Source: a virus
Lineage: Duplodnaviria; Caudoviricetes
Virus record (IMG/VR): IMGVR_UViG_3300032030_000028
Span: 46,372-110,371 of that record
Length of the DNA stretch: 64,000 nt
Reading direction: 5' to 3' (one strand)
The notes under the pieces were generated by a model. The model saw only the letters and a list, made by a program, of their open reading frames with translations. It was not told where the DNA came from and made no database searches. How positions within the stretch are numbered: the first letter of the stretch is position 1; each line of letters opens with the position of its first letter. Position numbers and translations under genes: made by a program. Shown here in pieces: positions 2,728 to 49,777 of this stretch.

Positions 2728-5232
2728 ATGAAAAGATTTCATGAATATACAGGGATGATCACGGAATCCCTAATGATGTTATTAGTCTATTCCGCTATAG
2801 TAGCTACCATGGTCCAGGATGCCAAACAAGAACGTCTCAAGTTCAAGATAGAGCAAAAACGAATGGAAAAAGAGCTTAAAGAAATGGAAGATAGGGAGGA
2901 TGATGAAGAAGTCCAACGTAGGATAGAAAAAGAACGTCATAAACAAGAACTAGCTCAGGCGAGACATGAACGTCAAGAAGAGAAAATGAAACGGAGAATG
3001 GCTAAAATACAGATGCTCCAGGATAAAATAGCGGAATCTCGTGAGAAAAAATTAGAAACTCAGCGTTTTGCATTAGCAGCCCATAATATGATGAACGACA
3101 AGGAGACCGCTGAAGACCGGAGTCTTATCGAGAAACATGCTAAGAACAAAGAAAAATGCTCTCCTGATCAAATTCGCAGGGCTACTGAAAAAGCTGATAA
3201 AATATCCGACGAAGAAGCAGATAAGTATATAGCTAAATACATGCCGAAAAAAGAACTCCCTAAGACCGAACCCGGGCCTAAAAAAGAAACTCCGAAGAAA
3301 ACGGATAAGATCCCAAATCCTGGAGACTTCAAGATGCCTAAAAAACCGGATACTGACGGGGCTGTAGATAAAAAATCAGAACCTAAAGAAGAAGAAGTAA
3401 TCAATCCGGAAACTGGCAAGAAAGAAAAACATAAAGTATATACAGGTAAACGCGGTGGTAGATATTGGATGTCTAAAAACAACAATAAAGTATATGTTAA
3501 TGAAGATAAAGAAGAACAAGAAGAAGCTTCTCGTTGGGATATTACTAATTCTAGACTAGCTTATCTGCAATGGGTTATAGATAACACTAAAGATAAAGAA
3601 AAATCCAATAAGCTTCAGGAGATGTATAATGCCTTGTATAATATAACATATGATACGGGCGGCGATATCCGGAGCTTAGATGATACTATATCTTATATTA
3701 CTCAGACCATGCAAAACAATAAAGGTCTGATTCCGGGACTTCCTTCTAATGATCAGATAGAAGAAATCGATAAAAAAGCAGCTAGCTTTGAAGAATTGCA
3801 CCCGGAAGAATATGAAAGTTATATCAAGAGACTGGAAAGTTCTAATCTGGATAAATCCAAGAAAGATAAAGAAGATCAAGCGGATAGTGTGCTGAGTCCG
3901 GCGGACACCAAAGATGATAAAGATGCCCGCAATAAGCTAGCTACTCTTACTTCCATATTTGGATTTACTAATATTATAGGTCTAGAACCTAATCGGAAGC
4001 CATCCGCGGAAGATATGAAGAAAAAATCCGAGCTGAAAAAAGATCAGAAAGATAATGCATTGCTCCAGGATACCGAGGATGACGAAACTGCTCTTAAAAA
4101 ACCGGAGATCTCCGGTGAAGAAAGCTCCGATGAGTCCGGTGAAGAAGGCTCCGATGAGTCCGGTGAAGAAGGCTCCGATGAGTCCGGTGAAGAGTTGTCG
4201 GATATTGAAGAGGATATGATCATGTATGTAGTCATGATGGCTGAAGAATATTTGGACCAGTTCGAAGGCGAAGACTATGACGAAGCTGATGTGGACAAAT
4301 GGTTGGATGAACAGGATTTGGAATCCGATCTTGGCCTGGAAACCGAAGAAGAGAAAAAAGGCTTCCGGGATGCTATGAAGCAAGAAATTAAGAATGAACT
4401 AGAATCCGAGTCCGATGAAGGTAGTGAAGAGTCCGGTGAACAGACTACGGAATCTCTCTTAGAGTTCTCTCAAAACTTTATATTTGAATTGTTTGGTCGG
4501 AATGACGCTTTCAAGGCGGCTAAGAAAAATGCTGAAATGTTCAATAAGTATGGTGATGGTGCATATAAACCGGAAGTTACAGTAAAAGAACTCCAAAAGG
4601 CACGTAAGAAAAATGCAAGCGCCGTTAAGTTCAACAAGGCGGCAAATTTGCTTACCGGACCACTGGGTGCCGCCATTATCAACAAAAAACAAGATAATAT
4701 GAAGAAACGTATGGCCGGAATGAAGTCCATGATTGATAGCACGCAGGATCCCGATGAAAAAGAGAAACTTCAAAAGAATTACGATATGATGATGAAGGCT
4801 TGTGTTACCAAGAAAGGAAGATTCCGCGCCCGTCCGAAACTTAAAAGCCTTTCTCCGGAAGAAAGGGCCGAATTTAAATCTAAGTACAAAGAAATCAAGC
4901 AATCTAAAACAATCCGACAAGCTGGCAAGGATTATATGATCAAACACGAAGATTTTGCAGACCAAGTACTACAAGATAAAGTATCTAAGAAAAAAGAAGA
5001 AAAAGAAATCAAGAAAGGTAATGTTGAAAAGACTTCCATGGATGACGGATCTACTCTGGTAGCTCGGAAATCGGAAAGAGACGGCCATATGATTTATACT
5101 AGAGAAAAAGGAGGCAAGACTATTGAATATATGGATAAAGACGACTATCAAAAACGTCTAGCTAGCAAGAAAGAATCTGTAGAACATCACTTCAGTTCTT
5201 TCAAATCCTTGCTAGAATCTAAAAATGCATAA
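2728..5232 (+). CDS. Large putative internal head/ejection protein (paralogue 1)
   Basis: 834 aa. Leader MKRFHEYTGMITES, hydrophobic N-terminal helix, coiled coil, acidic repeats, C-terminal module shared with 5760 and 7816. Confidence 0.6.
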   Translation: MKRFHEYTGMITESLMMLLVYSAIVATMVQDAKQERLKFKIEQKRMEKELKEMEDREDDEEVQRRIEKERHKQELAQARHERQEEKMKRRMAKIQMLQDKIAESREKKLETQRFALAAHNMMNDKETAEDRSLIEKHAKNKEKCSPDQIRRATEKADKISDEEADKYIAKYMPKKELPKTEPGPKKETPKKTDKIPNPGDFKMPKKPDTDGAVDKKSEPKEEEVINPETGKKEKHKVYTGKRGGRYWMSKNNNKVYVNEDKEEQEEASRWDITNSRLAYLQWVIDNTKDKEKSNKLQEMYNALYNITYDTGGDIRSLDDTISYITQTMQNNKGLIPGLPSNDQIEEIDKKAASFEELHPEEYESYIKRLESSNLDKSKKDKEDQADSVLSPADTKDDKDARNKLATLTSIFGFTNIIGLEPNRKPSAEDMKKKSELKKDQKDNALLQDTEDDETALKKPEISGEESSDESGEEGSDESGEEGSDESGEELSDIEEDMIMYVVMMAEEYLDQFEGEDYDEADVDKWLDEQDLESDLGLETEEEKKGFRDAMKQEIKNELESESDEGSEESGEQTTESLLEFSQNFIFELFGRNDAFKAAKKNAEMFNKYGDGAYKPEVTVKELQKARKKNASAVKFNKAANLLTGPLGAAIINKKQDNMKKRMAGMKSMIDSTQDPDEKEKLQKNYDMMMKACVTKKGRFRARPKLKSLSPEERAEFKSKYKEIKQSKTIRQAGKDYMIKHEDFADQVLQDKVSKKKEEKEIKKGNVEKTSMDDGSTLVARKSERDGHMIYTREKGGKTIEYMDKDDYQKRLASKKESVEHHFSSFKSLLESKNA
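4111..4191 (+). repeat. 24-bp coding tandem repeat (SGEE[GS]SDE), about 3 copies
   Basis: tccggtgaagaaggctccgatgag units seen directly. Confidence 0.9.
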
Positions 5233-9057: not shown

Positions 9058-11199
9058 TTACATTATTTCTAAATTCGGAACTAAGCTCGGATATATAAAT
9101 TGCCAAGCTGTATACATGTTTTTCTTATCATCCACCGATTTAAGAATATCCCGGTTATAAGAATATCCGTATTTCGCAACAAACTTAAACCATACCTCTC
9201 TTATATTCTCATATAAATCTATTGAAGTTATATACGTATTGTTTTTTATTCGCAACCTACAGTTTTCACATCCCATCTCGCCCAAAAATTCATTGACTAA
9301 TTGTTCATACCCCCCACATTCATTATCGTACTCTACAGCTCCAGCCACCGTAATTAATTTATCAGGAGTTTCAATAATTTTTTCATATAATCCCCGATGG
9401 AATCCGTGGTCTATAAAAAATGCATTGAGTGTGCCGTTGAGAATATCTAATCTTTCATAATCATTATAATCTTTATCATGCTGAGATATATCATATCCAA
9501 GATTGAATACTATCTGGGGTTGCCCATATGTTTCGCATTTATGAACTTGAGGCATCCAGGCGGACCCATATGTAGAACAATAAATAGGAATACATAAGAA
9601 ATTCAGCTCTCCATATCTATGCTCGCATATGTTGAATTCCGGGTCTCCGCAAATGGTCACATCCGCATCCGATAAAGGAAGGACATAGGATGTAATCAAA
9701 TCTTTCTTGCGCTCCGCATACCAGAAAATATCAAATGGTTCCCAATGGCATATCAGATTAATTTTCGGCCGGAAAGTCCAGTTAGGTTTCATTCCTTTGC
9801 TTAATAAGAATTCTTGTTCTCCTCTAGATAACGGCCCTTGTATATCGGTAAAATAATTTATATTCTGATTCCAATTCCACCAAGTATATCCATCCACACT
9901 TTTCATATCCAAACCGGCATGACCACGTTTGTACTTATTGTACCAATAATCCTTGATGTTTTTGATGATATAGTGATTCACCCATACTGTATCGAGACTT
10001 CCGTCTCTCCATTTAAACATATTGTAATTCACAAGATTGCCTAAACAGTCTCGAGCGGATACACCTGACGCGGACCACACCGTATGTTCATTCATATCCA
10101 AAGCCAATCCGGATCTAGATATAGTTTTATACCAGCCGTTCATATTCTCGGGTCGGCAATCTTTCCGGACATTATCCGCAATCGGCTCTGTACAATATTG
10201 ATATATTGGTTTATCTATATCAAACGATTCGGGATTTGCATGAAAACAACGCCATTGTAAGATATAAGCATCTGTATCTGGGAAAGTGTTCAAAAAGTTT
10301 TTAATGCTCGTATAAATATCTTTATTGATATTAATATATTCATCAATGTCAATAAAGGCTACCCATCTATAAATATTATCGTCGCAAAATGTTTTATATT
10401 GTGTTATTTGCTGAGCCTTGGCTCCGCGAATTTGGCGTATTTCGACTTGATTGAACTTTTTTTCCAGCCACTGATATGATTCTGGAGAATCGATATCGTT
10501 GTTGTCATAGACATATATTCTGTCAAATCCTAGTTCTAAATGCCATTTGCACCAATCTTCTAGATAATTGTTTTCTTGCTTGGCAATAGCACATATTACC
10601 GTTTCGCGAGATCGGTTCTCATATGTTTCTATAGACATAGTCAAACCAAGGTCTCCAGCGGCCTTATGCCAGGTTTCGACATCTATATCCCATTCGGGAA
10701 TATTTCTTTCTAAAATTTTATTATGCACAGTTTTTCGGATAATCGTAGTACCCTGATCAAAATCATTGAAAACATGTATAAGCAGATCATCGTGCTCTCC
10801 GGCGATTTTCAGCAGCGCTTTATAACAATCTCCATTCCACGGCCCACCAAACACCGGATCATGAGAAGCCGCACATTCAGAAATTGGCCACATATCATGA
10901 CACACAATAGTCCCCCCAGTATTCAAAAATTTAAGAGAGTTTGTAATATCTCTATATACTTGCTCATGCTGATGCAATCCATCAATGAATATTAAATCAA
11001 ACATTTGCCGGTTTATAGAGAAAAAGTCATCCGAAGCAATTATCATATTAGCGGCGGTATCCGGGTTAGGGTCCACCCCTGTTTTGAATTCGGCATTGAT
11101 TTGATTAAAAACATAACCTTCCGATACGCCGATTTCTAAATATGTTTTATATTTATATTTTTCTATTAAAAAATTTAAAAGATCTAATCTATCTTTCAT
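9058..11199 (-). CDS. SAM methyltransferase (Methyltransf_24-like) fused to a GT-A glycosyltransferase (GT92/Glyco_tranf_2_4-like)
   Basis: YLEIGV and DLIFIDGLH, then VICAIAKQENNYLEDW..GFDRIYVYDNN and WVAFIDIDEY. Confidence 0.8.
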   Translation of the reverse strand: MKDRLDLLNFLIEKYKYKTYLEIGVSEGYVFNQINAEFKTGVDPNPDTAANMIIASDDFFSINRQMFDLIFIDGLHQHEQVYRDITNSLKFLNTGGTIVCHDMWPISECAASHDPVFGGPWNGDCYKALLKIAGEHDDLLIHVFNDFDQGTTIIRKTVHNKILERNIPEWDIDVETWHKAAGDLGLTMSIETYENRSRETVICAIAKQENNYLEDWCKWHLELGFDRIYVYDNNDIDSPESYQWLEKKFNQVEIRQIRGAKAQQITQYKTFCDDNIYRWVAFIDIDEYININKDIYTSIKNFLNTFPDTDAYILQWRCFHANPESFDIDKPIYQYCTEPIADNVRKDCRPENMNGWYKTISRSGLALDMNEHTVWSASGVSARDCLGNLVNYNMFKWRDGSLDTVWVNHYIIKNIKDYWYNKYKRGHAGLDMKSVDGYTWWNWNQNINYFTDIQGPLSRGEQEFLLSKGMKPNWTFRPKINLICHWEPFDIFWYAERKKDLITSYVLPLSDADVTICGDPEFNICEHRYGELNFLCIPIYCSTYGSAWMPQVHKCETYGQPQIVFNLGYDISQHDKDYNDYERLDILNGTLNAFFIDHGFHRGLYEKIIETPDKLITVAGAVEYDNECGGYEQLVNEFLGEMGCENCRLRIKNNTYITSIDLYENIREVWFKFVAKYGYSYNRDILKSVDDKKNMYTAWQFIYPSLVPNLEIM

Positions 11200-43787: not shown

Positions 43788-45335
43788 TTATAAAACAATT
43801 TCAACTTCATTTTTCACAGTCGCTGTTTCAAACCGATCATTATCAATGTTGTTTTTAATATTAAAAAATTCACTTTCATTTATATAATGAAAAATAAACT
43901 CCGCATCCATGTTCTTAATAGCCCGATCCCTATATGTCCTTGCCATACCCATCAGGCCTCGATTTAGGAAAAAATTAGCAATAATCATCAATATTTCGGG
44001 ATTGTCGGGGATTGTGGCTTCTAATATAGAAATGATGTTATAAGCTTCTAGATCCCGGATTCCATATCCTATGGAGTATAATATTTTTATTAGATAAGAA
44101 ATTTGTTTTTCCCGAGATATCGGGAATTCAAAGCTTCTTTCATACATTCTCCAATACCGGCAATAAGCCTCCGAGATAAAATTATTTTCTAAACAAAATT
44201 CAGCTTCTTTTTCCGCAGCCTCAAATCCATCGTAATTATTATAATATATTGAAGCATTAGGTAAGAATTCCATATTTTCTGAAAGATCTAGATTGCCATC
44301 TAATAGTTTATCAATGTTTATATCGGAAGATTCTATTAGATATGAGAACCCGTCCTGTAAAGCAAATGGGATATAAAAAATACCGTTTTGATAGGCTAAT
44401 CCGTTTGTGAATTCAATATGGTGGTTGTTAAATGAAAATGCTGGAGAAATCTTTATAATATTCCATTCGTTATCCCAAAGTATGAAATGGTGTAGATATT
44501 TTGCCACTTTTCTTTTCATTTCATTTAAATATAATTCACAGGTATGCACAATCGCAATGTGAGTGTCGTCTTTGTACGGAATGACTTGCGATGAACCACG
44601 AAATAGTGTATCTCCTTGTTTTGATGAATTATATATTCCTTCCACCCTGGAAATATCCGTGAATTGTTTTTCGATAACTTTTTCCGCATATACAACACCG
44701 GACTCAGCGTCCTTTAAATCTATTTTAACTATGCATGTAGGGTTGCTTGTTCTCATAAAATGCCAAGGCATATCTATAATAGGTACCCAATTTTTTTCAC
44801 AATAGCTATCCCAAGGGACTTCTATTTTCATTCTTGATAATTCTTTACCATCCTCCGTGATCTCCATAATCTCCATTCTTCCAACACCGGTAGGGTTATC
44901 ATCTCTTCGGACGCCGATAGCCAATAAACGATTTTCCCACCTTACCAATCTGGCATCTTCTAATCCGACAAAATCCCACTGTTCGGGAACATCATTTTCG
45001 GAAGTATCTATAAGATTATATTGGATACGATTCTCGGCATATTCGCATATCCAATTTCTCGTCCTGAGATGTGAATAATCATATTCTGGAGTTAAATAAT
45101 GCACGGGGCCCCAAGAAGACCAAAATCTATACGGATCTATCGAATTATGTAGTATATAATTAACATTTCTGAGAATCAACCTGATCTTATCTCCGTCTAT
45201 AAATATTGATGGGTTGCAGATACTCGGCCATTCGGGGGTGGTTATAGGGATCCTCAAAGGTACTAAATATGTTGATTCCGATGACCCTAATATATTGGCT
45301 AGGTTGTTATATTTTGGATAATGCAGATTGATCAT
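43788..45335 (-). CDS. Beta-propeller glycosidase-like protein with a TPR-like tail (paralogue of 42402)
   Basis: CNPSI, GLEDARL, CEKNWVP, FRGSSQ, HIEF. Confidence 0.7.
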   Translation of the reverse strand: MINLHYPKYNNLANILGSSESTYLVPLRIPITTPEWPSICNPSIFIDGDKIRLILRNVNYILHNSIDPYRFWSSWGPVHYLTPEYDYSHLRTRNWICEYAENRIQYNLIDTSENDVPEQWDFVGLEDARLVRWENRLLAIGVRRDDNPTGVGRMEIMEITEDGKELSRMKIEVPWDSYCEKNWVPIIDMPWHFMRTSNPTCIVKIDLKDAESGVVYAEKVIEKQFTDISRVEGIYNSSKQGDTLFRGSSQVIPYKDDTHIAIVHTCELYLNEMKRKVAKYLHHFILWDNEWNIIKISPAFSFNNHHIEFTNGLAYQNGIFYIPFALQDGFSYLIESSDINIDKLLDGNLDLSENMEFLPNASIYYNNYDGFEAAEKEAEFCLENNFISEAYCRYWRMYERSFEFPISREKQISYLIKILYSIGYGIRDLEAYNIISILEATIPDNPEILMIIANFFLNRGLMGMARTYRDRAIKNMDAEFIFHYINESEFFNIKNNIDNDRFETATVKNEVEIVL

Positions 45336-45443
45336 AATATATGTTTATGAAATTATAGTCTATCATTACCGAAAATTTAGTATATTCCATACTAACTTAA
45401 CTTATATTATAGTTATTTTTTAATCATTGAAATATGATATTAT

Positions 45444-47282
45444 ATGGAAACTTATAACCCTTACGAATATAATATATTGCAAGAAGATTTACAAAACCCT
45501 GGAGTGATTTCGGAAGCCCGGGTACAGGATATACCCGGGATGAATGTAACTACTAAATTTAAACCCAAATATTCATCACAAGATATAAAAAACGCCGAAA
45601 AGAAATCTAAAAAGACTATAGCCAGATTTTTTTCTAACCTTTCCAGGTTAGGAATGAATTATGATGAACAAGTTATCAAGAATATGCGGGCTATTCCGGC
45701 GGACAAAAACCTGCTGCCGGAAGAAAGGCAGATCACATATCAAAACCTTTTCCAACAATTACAATCGGCATGGAAGCAAAAATCTAATTCTGATCAATCT
45801 TTTTATGAAAAAGACATTGCCATCAAGAGAGAAAATCTCCGGACTTTAGCGATGCAGCCAGAATTAGAAGATATTTTGGATACATTTTCCAATGAAGCTA
45901 TTGTATATGATTCTAATTTCGTTTATTTTGCCGAACCTTTTATTGATGATAAAGATTTAGTAGAATACAATAAAGATGTCCGCTCCAAAATCAACGATTG
46001 TGTCTCCGCTGGATTCAAACGATTTTATAAGATGCTCCGATGGAGAACCAAGGCGTGGGATGATTTTAAAAGATTTTTAGTGGAAGGTTGCCTAGCCTGG
46101 GAAATTGTATACGACTCTTTAGAGAAACCTACAAAAATTATAGGGCTCGTACCTTTAGATCCGGCCACCCTGACTAAAAAATTCGAGAATGATAAATGGT
46201 ATTGGGTTCAATATAAAGACGTTAAGGCTAAGGAAAGAAAACTATTAGATTCTCAAGTAATATATATAGTCTTTCAGGAAACAGAGGCCATATCGAGAAC
46301 CAGCTATCTGGAACGATTGGTCCGACCGTTTAATATATATAGAATTATCGAACAAGCTCAGATTATATTCTGCGTCACTAATGCTCAATATAAGATGAAA
46401 TTCACCATCCCGGTGAAAGGCATGAATCGGGCATTGGGATCTCAGACATTGAATTCGGCCATGCAGAGATATCGGGAAGATATCAAATTCATATCCGAAA
46501 GCGGCGAGCTGACTATTAATGGACAACCGCAGATGCCGTTCAATAAGGAATATTGGATGGCTGAATCGGAGAGCGGTACACCGGACATCGAAACCCTCGC
46601 TGGAGACTCTGGTCCGGATCTTCTGGATTCCGATTATCTGAAATTCTTCCGGAATCAGCTTTATAAAGTATCTAAAATTCCGTTGAATAGATTTGATGTG
46701 GATAGCGGAGAAGGCTGGTTTGGCACCGATGCCGAATCCTATGCTCGGAACGAGATAGACTTCGGAAGATATGTTACCAGAATGCGGAATATATTCTCTC
46801 AGATCATCTTGAAACCTATCTGGATCCAGCTATGTCTGGATATGCCCGAGATGATGGATTCTCCGGAATTCCAAGATTGCATCCAACTCCACTATCATTC
46901 TTATAATCTATTTGAAGAGATGATGGAAATCCAGCTCATGGATCGCCGTATCGAATCTATTAACAATATGAAAGAATTGCAAGATATGGACATGGAAGGC
47001 AATGAAGTGACTTTCTTTGCCTCTAAATTCCTGGTTCAGAAATATCTGCATCTCTCCGATGCGGATCTCAAGCTCAATGAGAAATATAAACAAGAAGAAG
47101 TAGAGAAATTCAACTTAGCCGGTGGTGAAAGACCACAGCAACCCGGACAATCCGGCCGTTATGGTGGTGGCGCTCCCGGTGGTTGGGAGAGTATGTTAGC
47201 TAAGATGAGCGATATGGAGCGAAGGATAGATGAAAAACTTAAAAAGTATAAAGATATTATCAGCGAATCTGAGGAGTTGTAA
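45444..47282 (+). CDS. Portal protein (T4 gp20-like)
   Basis: SYLERLVRPFN..IEQAQII, KEYWM..GTPDIETL, YKVSKIPLNRF, RNEIDFGRYVTRMRNIF. Confidence 0.92.
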   Translation: METYNPYEYNILQEDLQNPGVISEARVQDIPGMNVTTKFKPKYSSQDIKNAEKKSKKTIARFFSNLSRLGMNYDEQVIKNMRAIPADKNLLPEERQITYQNLFQQLQSAWKQKSNSDQSFYEKDIAIKRENLRTLAMQPELEDILDTFSNEAIVYDSNFVYFAEPFIDDKDLVEYNKDVRSKINDCVSAGFKRFYKMLRWRTKAWDDFKRFLVEGCLAWEIVYDSLEKPTKIIGLVPLDPATLTKKFENDKWYWVQYKDVKAKERKLLDSQVIYIVFQETEAISRTSYLERLVRPFNIYRIIEQAQIIFCVTNAQYKMKFTIPVKGMNRALGSQTLNSAMQRYREDIKFISESGELTINGQPQMPFNKEYWMAESESGTPDIETLAGDSGPDLLDSDYLKFFRNQLYKVSKIPLNRFDVDSGEGWFGTDAESYARNEIDFGRYVTRMRNIFSQIILKPIWIQLCLDMPEMMDSPEFQDCIQLHYHSYNLFEEMMEIQLMDRRIESINNMKELQDMDMEGNEVTFFASKFLVQKYLHLSDADLKLNEKYKQEEVEKFNLAGGERPQQPGQSGRYGGGAPGGWESMLAKMSDMERRIDEKLKKYKDIISESEEL

Positions 47283-47307
47283 TATTATTTTATTAAAAAA
47301 ATTAAAT

Positions 47308-47952
47308 ATGAAAAGTTTAACGGAATCTATTATAGGGAGACGAAGTGCGGAATTTCGAACACACAATGATCCTACATTAAAAAATCCGGCATTAGAATTT
47401 AATGCTATAGTTAAAGATATAGGAAATTGTCTTAAATCTCGTACTAATTGTTTATTAAATTGTGGGAATTATACAGCCACAGATGGTTTAGAAGATATAA
47501 TTTCGGCAATTCAAAAACGTATTCGAAAATATAAAAATTCTCGCCAATATTTTTATTTCGGAGATGGAGATACGGTGCCTTCCGGATCGCAAAAAGATCT
47601 ATTTGATTACATAACAGATTTTTATCAAAAATATCCTGGTGAACCTAAATATGGAACAACTCCTGGTGAAGATACAATTATTGTTATAGATATTCGTGGC
47701 AATATTAATTTACCTGATAAGACGCCGCAATGGATTGCTGATAAAAATATTACGGTTGTCGTAATTGGTGATAAAAATATACTTTTAGACCACAACTGGG
47801 ATGTTTTTTTAAGAACAGCTAATGAATATATAGAGGGCCCGTATTCATTTGGATATGTACATGATAAATATTTATTCAATAATCGCGGATATAGATTTGA
47901 TGCTGATGATAAAACGCAGAAAACAACACCTCCTATTGTATGGAAACACTAA
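47308..47952 (+). CDS. SIIGR-leader protein (214 aa)
   Basis: Probable start MKSLTESIIGRR at 47308. Confidence 0.75.
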   Translation: MKSLTESIIGRRSAEFRTHNDPTLKNPALEFNAIVKDIGNCLKSRTNCLLNCGNYTATDGLEDIISAIQKRIRKYKNSRQYFYFGDGDTVPSGSQKDLFDYITDFYQKYPGEPKYGTTPGEDTIIVIDIRGNINLPDKTPQWIADKNITVVVIGDKNILLDHNWDVFLRTANEYIEGPYSFGYVHDKYLFNNRGYRFDADDKTQKTTPPIVWKH

Positions 47953-47976
47953 TACTTTAATTGAGAATTTCAATAT

Positions 47977-48006
47977 AAAGGTCTTGCAAGAGACCTTTTA
48001 TTTTTT
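47977..48006 (+). terminator. Terminator (duplicated at 48915)
   Basis: AAAGGTCTT-GCAA-GAGACCTTTT. Confidence 0.75.
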
Positions 48007-48025
48007 ATATAATTATAATGAAAAT

Positions 48026-48467
48026 ATGGAAGAAAAAATTACATTATCCCCATATACCCCGGAATGGGAGGATGCTATAGACATGCAATTCATGCAATCG
48101 GTTATCGACGAGGTCACTCAATCCTGTCTGCTTCCCAACCCTATACCTCTTGCCCGCATTCCTAAGATCATCGGACAGGTAGCTAAGTGGTTCTGGCAGC
48201 ACGATGACACCTCGGTAGAACAGAGATTCTATCTTATTAAAAACGAAGAATTCTGCAAGGGAAATATGTTGAACAAGATAGTACAGCTTCCGGAACAAAT
48301 TATGGCTGTTCAAGGGTGTTATAAAACCAATAATCTCAAATATGGAGTCATGGGTGATTTCTCGGTGGAGAGGATGATGTTGAGCACTTATTCTATGTAT
48401 GGAGCGGAGAATAGATGAGAAGCTTAAAAAGTATAAAGATATTATCAGTGAATCTGAGGAATCATAG
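48026..48467 (+). pseudogene. Chimera: 5' half of the neck gene joined out of frame to a copy of the portal 3' end
   Basis: 48026-48404 matches 48965-49343, and 48398-48467 matches 47213-47282. Confidence 0.9.
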
Positions 48468-48490
48468 TATTATTTAAAAAAAATCAAAAT

Positions 48491-48883
48491 ATGAAAAGTT
48501 TAACGGAATCTATTAAGAATATCAAAGAAAGAAGAACTCCTTATCAAATTGATCAAAATGATCTAAAAAAGGTGGAAAAAGTCTTGAATGATAAAAAAAC
48601 CTGGAAAGAATTATCTAAATTATGCAACCTATCGGAAGAAATCACCAAGCTATATTGTACTAGTCGATTAGAAATGCTTTCGGATCCGGAATGGTATGAA
48701 AACTTCGAAGGCGTGCGCAATCTTAATATGGCTTACGTTATTTCTGAATTAGCCGATACCGATGATGAAGACTTCCAAATAGAATTAGATGATGAAAATA
48801 TTTCCGGATGGGAATGGCAAGATATTAGTAATTTGGTCACCGATGTTATGAACAGATGTCTCAAGGCTTTAAGATACTCTTAA
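48491..48883 (+). CDS. Small acidic protein with MKSLTESI leader
   Basis: First 24 nt identical to the 47308 gene, unrelated afterwards. Confidence 0.75.
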   Translation: MKSLTESIKNIKERRTPYQIDQNDLKKVEKVLNDKKTWKELSKLCNLSEEITKLYCTSRLEMLSDPEWYENFEGVRNLNMAYVISELADTDDEDFQIELDDENISGWEWQDISNLVTDVMNRCLKALRYS

Positions 48884-48914
48884 TAAATAAAATTCAATAT
48901 AAAAATTAACACAC

Positions 48915-48944
48915 AAAGGTCTCGCTAGAGACCTTTTATTTTTT
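48915..48944 (+). terminator. Terminator
   Basis: AAAGGTCTC-GCTA-GAGACCTTTT. Confidence 0.75.
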
Positions 48945-48964
48945 ATATGAACTACAGTAAAAAC

Positions 48965-49777
48965 ATGGAAGAAAAAATCACATTATCCCCATATACCCCG
49001 GAATGGGAGGATGCTATAGACATGCAATTCATGCAATCGGTTATTGATGAGGTCACTCAATCCTGTCTGCTTCCCAACCCTATACCTCTCGCTCGCATCC
49101 CTAAGATCATCGGGCAGGTAGCTAAATGGTTCTGGCAGAACGACGATACCGCGGTAGAACAAAGATTCTATCTTATCAAGAATGAAGAGTTCTGTAAAGG
49201 AAATATGATGAACAAGATAGTGCAGCTTCCGGAACAGATTATGGCCGTTCAGGGATGCTATAAAACTAATAATCTCAAATACGGGGTCATGGGCGATTTC
49301 TCGGTGGAAAGGATGATGTTGAGCACTTATTCTATGTATGGAGGAATAGGAGCAATAGGTGGCGGCATGGGGGCGAGTGCTATAGGATATAACTTAAAGG
49401 ATTATGTTGTATCTATGTATGAAGTAGATACATTTCAGCAGACATTACAGCCTACTCTTTCCTATAACTATAATATGTTTTCCAAGAAACTTATAGTATA
49501 CGGAGATCTTGGATTAAGTGATGTCTTGATAGATTCCTGGAAGAGAATCCGATTGCAAGATCTATATCAAAACTATTATTTTTTCCGTTATTGTGTATGT
49601 ATGGTTATGAAGTCTCTGACTCAGATATTCGGAACATTCACGTTTCGATATCCCGGAGGAGTGGAGATCAGATATGATGACTTTAAAAGCGACGCCCAAG
49701 AAGAAATTGAAAAAATCGAAGAAGAAATTCGGAATCTGCATGCTAACGATTACTTCTTCCAACCAAATACGTTATAA
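48965..49777 (+). CDS. Neck protein (T4 gp13-like)
   Basis: C-terminal PGGVEI..AQEEIEKIEEEI..DYFF typical of gp13; close to the portal. Start is 48965 or 48947. Confidence 0.75.
   Translation: MEEKITLSPYTPEWEDAIDMQFMQSVIDEVTQSCLLPNPIPLARIPKIIGQVAKWFWQNDDTAVEQRFYLIKNEEFCKGNMMNKIVQLPEQIMAVQGCYKTNNLKYGVMGDFSVERMMLSTYSMYGGIGAIGGGMGASAIGYNLKDYVVSMYEVDTFQQTLQPTLSYNYNMFSKKLIVYGDLGLSDVLIDSWKRIRLQDLYQNYYFFRYCVCMVMKSLTQIFGTFTFRYPGGVEIRYDDFKSDAQEEIEKIEEEIRNLHANDYFFQPNTL

Follow-up and report, generated by a model that had tools for sequence, protein, structure and literature searches.

A tandem duplication of the portal–neck interval carrying two different leader-tagged cassettes in an uncultivated T4-like phage

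The stretch of DNA analysed here (the window, 64,000 nt) makes up the terminal 64 kb of an IMG/VR virus record of 110,371 bp (IMGVR_UViG_3300032030_000028), which is metagenome-assembled and estimated to be 49 % complete. It belongs to a T4-like phage that is uncultivated and known from metagenome assemblies. In this phage, the gp20-type portal gene is separated from the gp13-type neck gene by a 1,185-bp tandem duplication, each copy of which carries a different small gene, designated cargo A or cargo B, beginning with the same short leader. By the sequence comparisons presented below, this duplication is most probably real and evolutionarily recent. Overall, it is best explained, and in our judgement probably so, by a recent heterologous tandem duplication that joined two cassette lineages, with the cargos most likely being internal proteins.

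The duplicated interval and the divergence of its copies

The duplicated unit comprises the 3′ tail of the portal gene, a leader gene, a terminator and the 5′ half of the neck gene, and is present at 47213–48397 and again at 48398–49343. The genes are thus ordered as portal, cargo A, terminator, neck fragment, portal tail, cargo B, terminator and intact neck (Table 1). The heptamer TATGGAG occurs three times, in the portal gene (47213–47219), at the junction (48398–48404) and in the intact neck gene (49337–49343); the bases of the joint are common to both parental sites, with neck sequence to the left and portal sequence to the right, which is the configuration left by a microhomology-mediated duplication. 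Repeat finding and pairwise alignment yielded 86 % identity for the portal tail and upstream leader region (47213–47298 and 48398–48483) and 89 % for the 5′ repeat of the neck gene (47996–48295 and 48935–49234), with repeat lengths far above chance expectation. This double occurrence of the unit, joined at a heptamer also found in both genes, had been described in an earlier note prepared from the sequence letters, and the sequence and the alignment of the copies agree with that description.

Each cassette has a start region and a terminator of its own. The neck fragment and the orphan portal tail are scars. The orphan tail still has an open frame up to a stop codon, as had been claimed. The cargos resemble each other solely in the leader, which was likewise anticipated: BLASTP identified the first eight residues, MKSLTESI (25 identical nucleotides), and nothing beyond. 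A sigma-70-like match at 47984–48013, a putative promoter, overlaps terminator 1, and the second copy contains no such match. A product identical to that of the intact neck gene bears a precomputed PF26809 (Phage_T4_gp13) match.

Table 1. Features of the portal–neck interval in window coordinates
Feature	Coordinates	Strand	Evidence and remarks
Portal, T4 gp20 type, 612 aa	45444..47282	+	Pfam PF07230 Portal_T4, E 1.7e-67; PHROG 213 portal; holds left TATGGAG
Portal 3′ tail, copy 1, within intact portal, opens unit 1	47213..47282	+	Direct repeat, 86 % to 48398–48483
Cargo A, 214 aa, leader MKSLTESIIGRR, no known family	47308..47952	+	Open reading frame; without Pfam or PHROG match
Intrinsic terminator 1, then T-run and TATAAT-like box	47977..47998	+	Terminator scan, 9-bp stem
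5′ copy of the neck gene (gp13-like), truncated after 126 native codons; AENR follows, stop 48416–48418	48026..48418	+	tblastn 97 % over neck residues 1–127; translation
Junction TATGGAG, 7-bp microhomology, neck 5′ half/portal tail	48398..48404	+	Sequence; copy alignment; contig L084
Orphan portal 3′ tail, copy 2, open 22-codon frame	48399..48467	+	Translates to MERRIDEKLKKYKDIISESEES and stop
Cargo B, 130 aa, leader MKSLTESI, acidic helical, no known family	48491..48883	+	Open reading frame; without Pfam or PHROG match
Intrinsic terminator 2	48915..48936	+	Terminator scan, 9-bp stem
Intact neck/head-completion, T4 gp13 type, 270 aa	48965..49777	+	PHROG 211 head-tail adaptor, E 7.6e-12; holds right TATGGAG

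From the start codon to the junction, the 5′ halves of the two neck copies differ at 31 of 379 sites, and the earlier hand count of about 28 synonymous and 3 non-synonymous changes proved to be exact by the Nei–Gojobori method. The synonymous divergence (dS) amounts to 0.54 and the non-synonymous divergence (dN) to 0.0099, resulting in a dN/dS ratio of 0.018, as expected for lineages under selection. Had neutral drift in place accounted for half of the synonymous divergence, approximately 70 non-synonymous changes would be expected, as opposed to the 3 observed. Polarisation of the 31 sites against eight relatives revealed that 24 of the differences are variants also segregating among other lineages, with private changes restricted to 5 in copy 1 (including the non-synonymous N58H and M82L) and 2 in copy 2. 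The combination of a dN/dS ratio of 0.018 with 24 shared variants argues that the copies diverged as functional genes in separate lineages and not in place, in line with the earlier proposal of divergence under selection in two related phages. The scarcity of private changes compared with shared ones further indicates that, measured against the divergence of the copies, the join is young.

The portal tails conform to the same pattern, as all differences between the orphan and the resident tail also occur in working portals of relatives, and the ESEES terminus of the orphan tail is the portal end of one of them (L100). On these comparisons, the copies are alleles of different lineages that were united recently. 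That private non-synonymous changes are slightly in excess in copy 1 is compatible with a brief relaxation of constraint that may have followed truncation.

The portal–neck slot in related phages

When the whole portal–neck interval was compared by blastn with 50,697 GenBank phage records, no match was obtained, i.e. no cultured relative was found at the DNA level. Close relatives were defined by protein identities of at least 94 % for the portal and at least 93 % for the neck, and a scan of JGI metagenomes for neck relatives gave five loci. The sample labels of the assemblies suggest that the relatives originate from the ruminant gut.

Across the gene orders compared, the gap between the gp20-type portal and gp13-type neck genes is a cassette slot, which is either empty or occupied by one small gene with an MKSLTESI leader and a stem-loop terminator. 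Empty slots were found in L095 and L097 (two cattle rumen assemblies) and in L101, where a spacer of 66–92 nt retains one terminator. Cargo A alone, followed by a neck gene that runs beyond the junction point, is present in L085 and in L091–L093, out of 12 contigs read for this neck protein. Cargo B alone occupies the slot in L003 (a 115-kb IMG/VR record), L106–L109 and a 3.8-kb ENA contig. Relatives with a single cargo, for which the earlier note had recommended a search, therefore exist for both cargos, and the A+B duplicated form with its scars was observed only in the phage of the window. The note had also held that the slot is variable and defined by the leader; its variability is evident from the empty, A and B states, but the terminator bounds the slot as much as the leader does, because empty slots retain the terminator and lack the leader.

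Further states involve a third leader gene. In L103 (assembly ERZ12302818), cargo A is followed by a gene starting MKSIKESIDLG (4783–5157), and L099 (1–220), which belongs to the same assembly and has the same coverage, contains the end of this third gene followed by the neck gene, so that the two contigs presumably join. The break between them may reflect a strain mixture or a repeat. L100 (3030–3500) contains a decayed remnant of the third gene (its last approximately 20 codons) between two terminators; the slot of this contig also includes a GC-rich non-coding stretch of about 90 nt, possibly another illegitimate join. When the empty slots of L101 (3405–3500) and L095 (3430–3500) are aligned with window positions 48468–48965, the cargo seems to have been lost precisely between short AAAT/AAAAT repeats. 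These A-rich repeats are positioned just 5′ of the cargo ATG and just 3′ of its stop codon, and the terminator is kept. In L087 (2703–3320), a 205-aa leader gene encoding a distant cargo A homologue (28 % identity) directly precedes a neck gene (94 % identity); no portal gene lies upstream of it, which indicates that gene order near the slot is mosaic as well.

The cassettes are more similar between phages than the DNA that surrounds them. The tract of the window at 46900–47998, which includes the last 380 nt of the portal gene, cargo A and the terminator, is approximately 99–100 % identical to L103, whereas the other DNA shared with L103 is approximately 82 % identical and homology stops right after the terminator. 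Similarly, the cargo B body, its terminator and the initial 60 nt of the neck gene are 96–100 % identical to L106, with flanks of approximately 85 %. Overall, the flanks of cassette-sharing phages are about 82–88 % identical. The contrast between cassette cores of 96–100 % identity and more diverged flanks argues that cassettes move by homologous recombination. As judged from these alignments, the usual change at the slot is replacement via conserved flanks, and the A+B form is an exception in which an illegitimate join occurred inside two essential genes. The A+B form is viable because an intact portal gene is present at its left and an intact neck gene at its right.

Reality of the junction and order of events

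The junction recurs in two further contigs. L084, a 4,683-bp contig from JGI metagenome 3300028888, spans window positions 43957–48640 (portal, cargo A, junction and start of cargo B) and is identical to the window save for one nucleotide deleted towards the end of cargo A. The gene table of a 131,731-bp ENA contig, the sole basis on which this contig was judged, lists the exact 170-aa product that spans the junction, within the gene order 612, 214, 170, 130 and 270 aa. Recurrence in contigs of different length argues against a one-off misassembly. Moreover, the 7-bp overlap is far shorter than the words used by assemblers (at least 21 bases), so that words spanning the junction should have been present in the reads. 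These observations make it very improbable that the junction is an assembly chimera, i.e. that co-existing A-type and B-type strains were stitched in tandem and no real molecule carries the joint, even though the record is a metagenome-assembled, incomplete fragment and relatives of the A and B types turn up together in similar series of samples. Strain bubbles usually break contigs, as seen in L103 and L099, rather than create tandem joins. An old duplication whose copies diverged in place, and whose truncated N-terminal neck fragment was kept under purifying selection as a working protein, would be compatible with the dN/dS ratio and with the retained start region and open frame of the fragment. 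It is nevertheless hardly credible, as most of the neck differences are variants common to other lineages and not new mutations, all changes that separate the non-coding orphan portal tail from copy 1 occur in the working portals of relatives, and, of the five changes private to copy 1, two are non-synonymous, a hint of relaxed constraint and not of purifying selection. In addition, the junction-bearing contigs are essentially identical, and no diverged A+B version was found among them.

Under the heterologous tandem duplication that we prefer, two lineages with different cassettes would have contributed to this genome, and an illegitimate join at TATGGAG would have linked neck codon 126 to a point 70 nt before the portal end. 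Illegitimate recombination, as postulated in the earlier note, is supported by the presence of the 7-bp motif at the joint and at both parental sites; the illegitimate join and the inter-lineage exchange may have taken place in either order, and both of the following scenarios fall under this explanation. In one, an A-type and a B-type genome would have undergone a single illegitimate crossover, or a template switch, during mixed infection, producing the A+B form directly. In the other, which we regard as on balance unlikely, a B+B duplication would have arisen within one B-type genome via TATGGAG, between sister copies or concatemers, and homologous recombination with an A-type relative would later have replaced its left copy, from the portal interior almost to the point where the neck fragment ends. 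Such replacement tracts are directly visible in the A tract shared with L103 and the B tract shared with L106, and the final 34 nt of neck copy 1, at which relatives differ at approximately three sites, are identical to copy 2, mildly favouring a tract that ended just before the junction. This course, however, requires two events and a tract end within the last 9 % of the neck fragment; the portal-tail differences start only 3 nt past TATGGAG, and neither a B+B nor an A+A duplicated form was present in any contig examined.

Several observations weigh against a direct join of two lineages or against the junction itself. The 34-nt identity fits slightly better with duplication within one genome followed by homologous replacement of one cassette. 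The sampled neck sequence nearest to copy 1 is copy 2 itself (91.8 %, compared with 91.0 % for L085), which implies that the exact donor is absent from the sample; donor assignment through neck similarity was attempted and failed, since the two copies are mutually nearest among the sampled sequences. Furthermore, an exact 27-mer across the junction had no match in IMG/VR outside the window's own record, and the three assembled contigs with the junction may come from samples that are not independent.

Owing to the deletion in L084 (3915–3925, corresponding to window position ~47875), the reading frame changes to that of the neck fragment for the last approximately 25 codons of cargo A, and a 369-aa fusion results; the deletion represents either a real variant with a damaged cargo A or a sequencing error.

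A broader and rather improbable proposal is that heterologous tandem duplication constitutes the first step of a general route from single-cassette slots to the multi-gene leader arrays found elsewhere in the genome. Along this route, an illegitimate join between co-infecting relatives would stack two alleles of the slot, the join would be retained because possession of both injected effectors is selected for, and later deletions would trim the neck and portal scars. The outcome would be scar-free tandems, such as cargo A with the third leader gene in L103.

Leader, cargos and comparison with known systems

The leader pattern heads 17 genes in the window, with none expected by chance, and its variant in this clade is MKxLxESIIG[RK]. 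In T4, internal proteins enter the prohead by means of the capsid-targeting sequence MKTYQEFIAE, of approximately 10 residues, and undergo one cleavage beside it (PMC8442874, PMC3012670), and each of the T4 internal proteins Ip1–3 inhibits a specific GmrSD-type restriction enzyme (PMC12373910). The leader of the window appears to resemble this capsid-targeting sequence: leaders such as MKTLQESIIG match it at six of the first eight residues (M1, K2, T3, Q5, E6 and I8) and contain an L-x-E site at residues 4–6. The relatives L022, L025 and L008 have leaders with I-x-E-A/S/G forms. Relatives with 48–66 % portal identity possess one to three genes right after the portal gene that start with MKHLVEYIAEA, MKHLVNYISEA, MKKLNEFINES or MKKLKDFITEG. 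Given T4-like leader genes at this place in distant relatives, the post-portal position seems to be an old and widespread locus for such genes. These genes are located at 9753–10196 in L022, 9763–11126 in L025, 9944–11128 in L008, 2051–3230 in L005 and 3928–4834 in L006, and their starts also include MKRLTNTINEA.

It is slightly more likely than not that the cargos are packaged, injected and probably anti-defence proteins. As in the case of the T4 Ip proteins, the leader would direct their loading into the prohead and they would be injected with the DNA, and the possession of both would widen the range of hosts or defences handled. A gp21-type prohead protease (PF03420, Peptidase_S77) was detected above the cut-off in G001, a complete 239.8-kb relative. 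The exact DNA pattern of the leader is absent from G001, which uses a different leader variant, seen in L008. A search of 5.8 billion proteins recovered five relatives of cargo A and three of cargo B, all within this phage group. Cargo A, cargo B and the neck fragment had no match in Pfam or PHROG. A P-loop/AAA-like assignment of cargo A was considered and not relied on, as the ESM Atlas leads were weak (0.88–0.91, with low shared-feature counts), and ESM Atlas features gave no lead for cargo B.

Three points tell against the assignment of the cargos to the packaged class. Position 10 of the leader is Gly, whereas T4 has Glu at this position, where it cleaves. The search with PF03420 did not find a gp21-type protease in the window's own record, although this negative is not evidence of absence, since the record is a half-genome. 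Finally, AlphaFold2 models of the cargos were poor (predicted local distance difference test scores of 43.7 and 49.7) and gave no confident fold.

The slot may be compared with the hyperplastic internal-protein (Ip) loci of T-even phages (Repoila et al. 1994, via PMC12373910; the T4 head review, PMC3012670). In both, unrelated small proteins have only a short N-terminal signal in common, their number and identity vary among close relatives at fixed loci amid structural or late genes, and a T4-type portal is present. The leaders of distant relatives are near-canonical (MKHLVEYIAEA compared with MKTYQEFIAE of T4). In contrast to the T-even loci, position 10 of the leader is not Glu in the window's clade, homologues of gp20 and gp13 flank the locus, the phage is an uncultivated one, and the change observed is an illegitimate join that duplicates gene ends and not a clean cassette swap.

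A second parallel is provided by the orphan genes of T4-type phages that are flanked by early-promoter stem-loop (PeSL) elements and shuffled by recombination (Arbiol et al. 2010, PMC2839356; Comeau et al. 2014, PMC4122927). Here, too, single orphan genes lie between conserved, putatively regulatory motifs, including a stem-loop terminator; their presence, absence and replacement vary between close relatives, and empty sites keep one motif, namely the terminator in L095 and L101. Recombination within such motifs accounts for the transfers of the A and B tracts (L103 and L106). Replacement via conserved flanks, the usual change at the slot, is on record for these orphan genes as well as for the T-even Ip loci (Repoila et al. 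1994, cited in PMC12373910). The slot differs in that its left handle is a coding leader with an A-rich spacer instead of an early promoter, and that the duplication junction lies outside the motifs, within two essential genes.

Microhomology-mediated tandem duplications occur in T4, as exemplified by the rII-region duplications and the gene 17–18 amplifications. The present duplication shares with them the head-to-tail arrangement, a size of approximately 1 kb, a joint of a few bases and partial gene copies at the novel joint. Unlike those, it is natural and not laboratory-selected, and its copies are approximately 8–14 % diverged and carry different genes, which indicates that the event combined two lineages. 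The event involves no new mechanism and falls within two known kinds, the hyperplastic loci of T4-type phages with their leader-tagged cassettes and microhomology-mediated tandem duplication; it is a clear and well-documented natural case from an uncultivated clade.

The locus may be viewed as a population-level snapshot of a T4-like phage diversifying its probable injected proteins, with the slot being seen empty, with A, with B, with A plus another leader gene, and with A+B and scars. The A+B form suggests that illegitimate recombination within essential genes is tolerable if an intact copy is kept, and that a phage can accumulate alternative effectors rather than swap them. If the cargos are indeed anti-defence proteins, the locus would be a ready source of candidate inhibitors. 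It also offers a natural system in which packaging by way of the leader could be probed beyond the enterobacterial T-even phages.

Some minor observations concern genes near the slot or leader genes elsewhere. In L092 (920–2758), the portal is called as two products of 350 and 249 aa; it is intact in sister contigs, and the split is probably an assembly or sequencing error. L088 (1408–2566), from a relative with 84 % neck identity, contains three tandem post-neck genes with a different leader variant, MKHLKEGLIKQRG, and its neck gene is preceded by a 411-aa gene that is not a cargo and that we guess to be possibly ligase-like. In L099 (3328–3651), a 107-aa gene with T5orf172/MUG113 domains (precomputed Pfam) is located inside a leader-gene array beside the endolysin gene, and is possibly a homing-endonuclease-like element able to promote local recombination.

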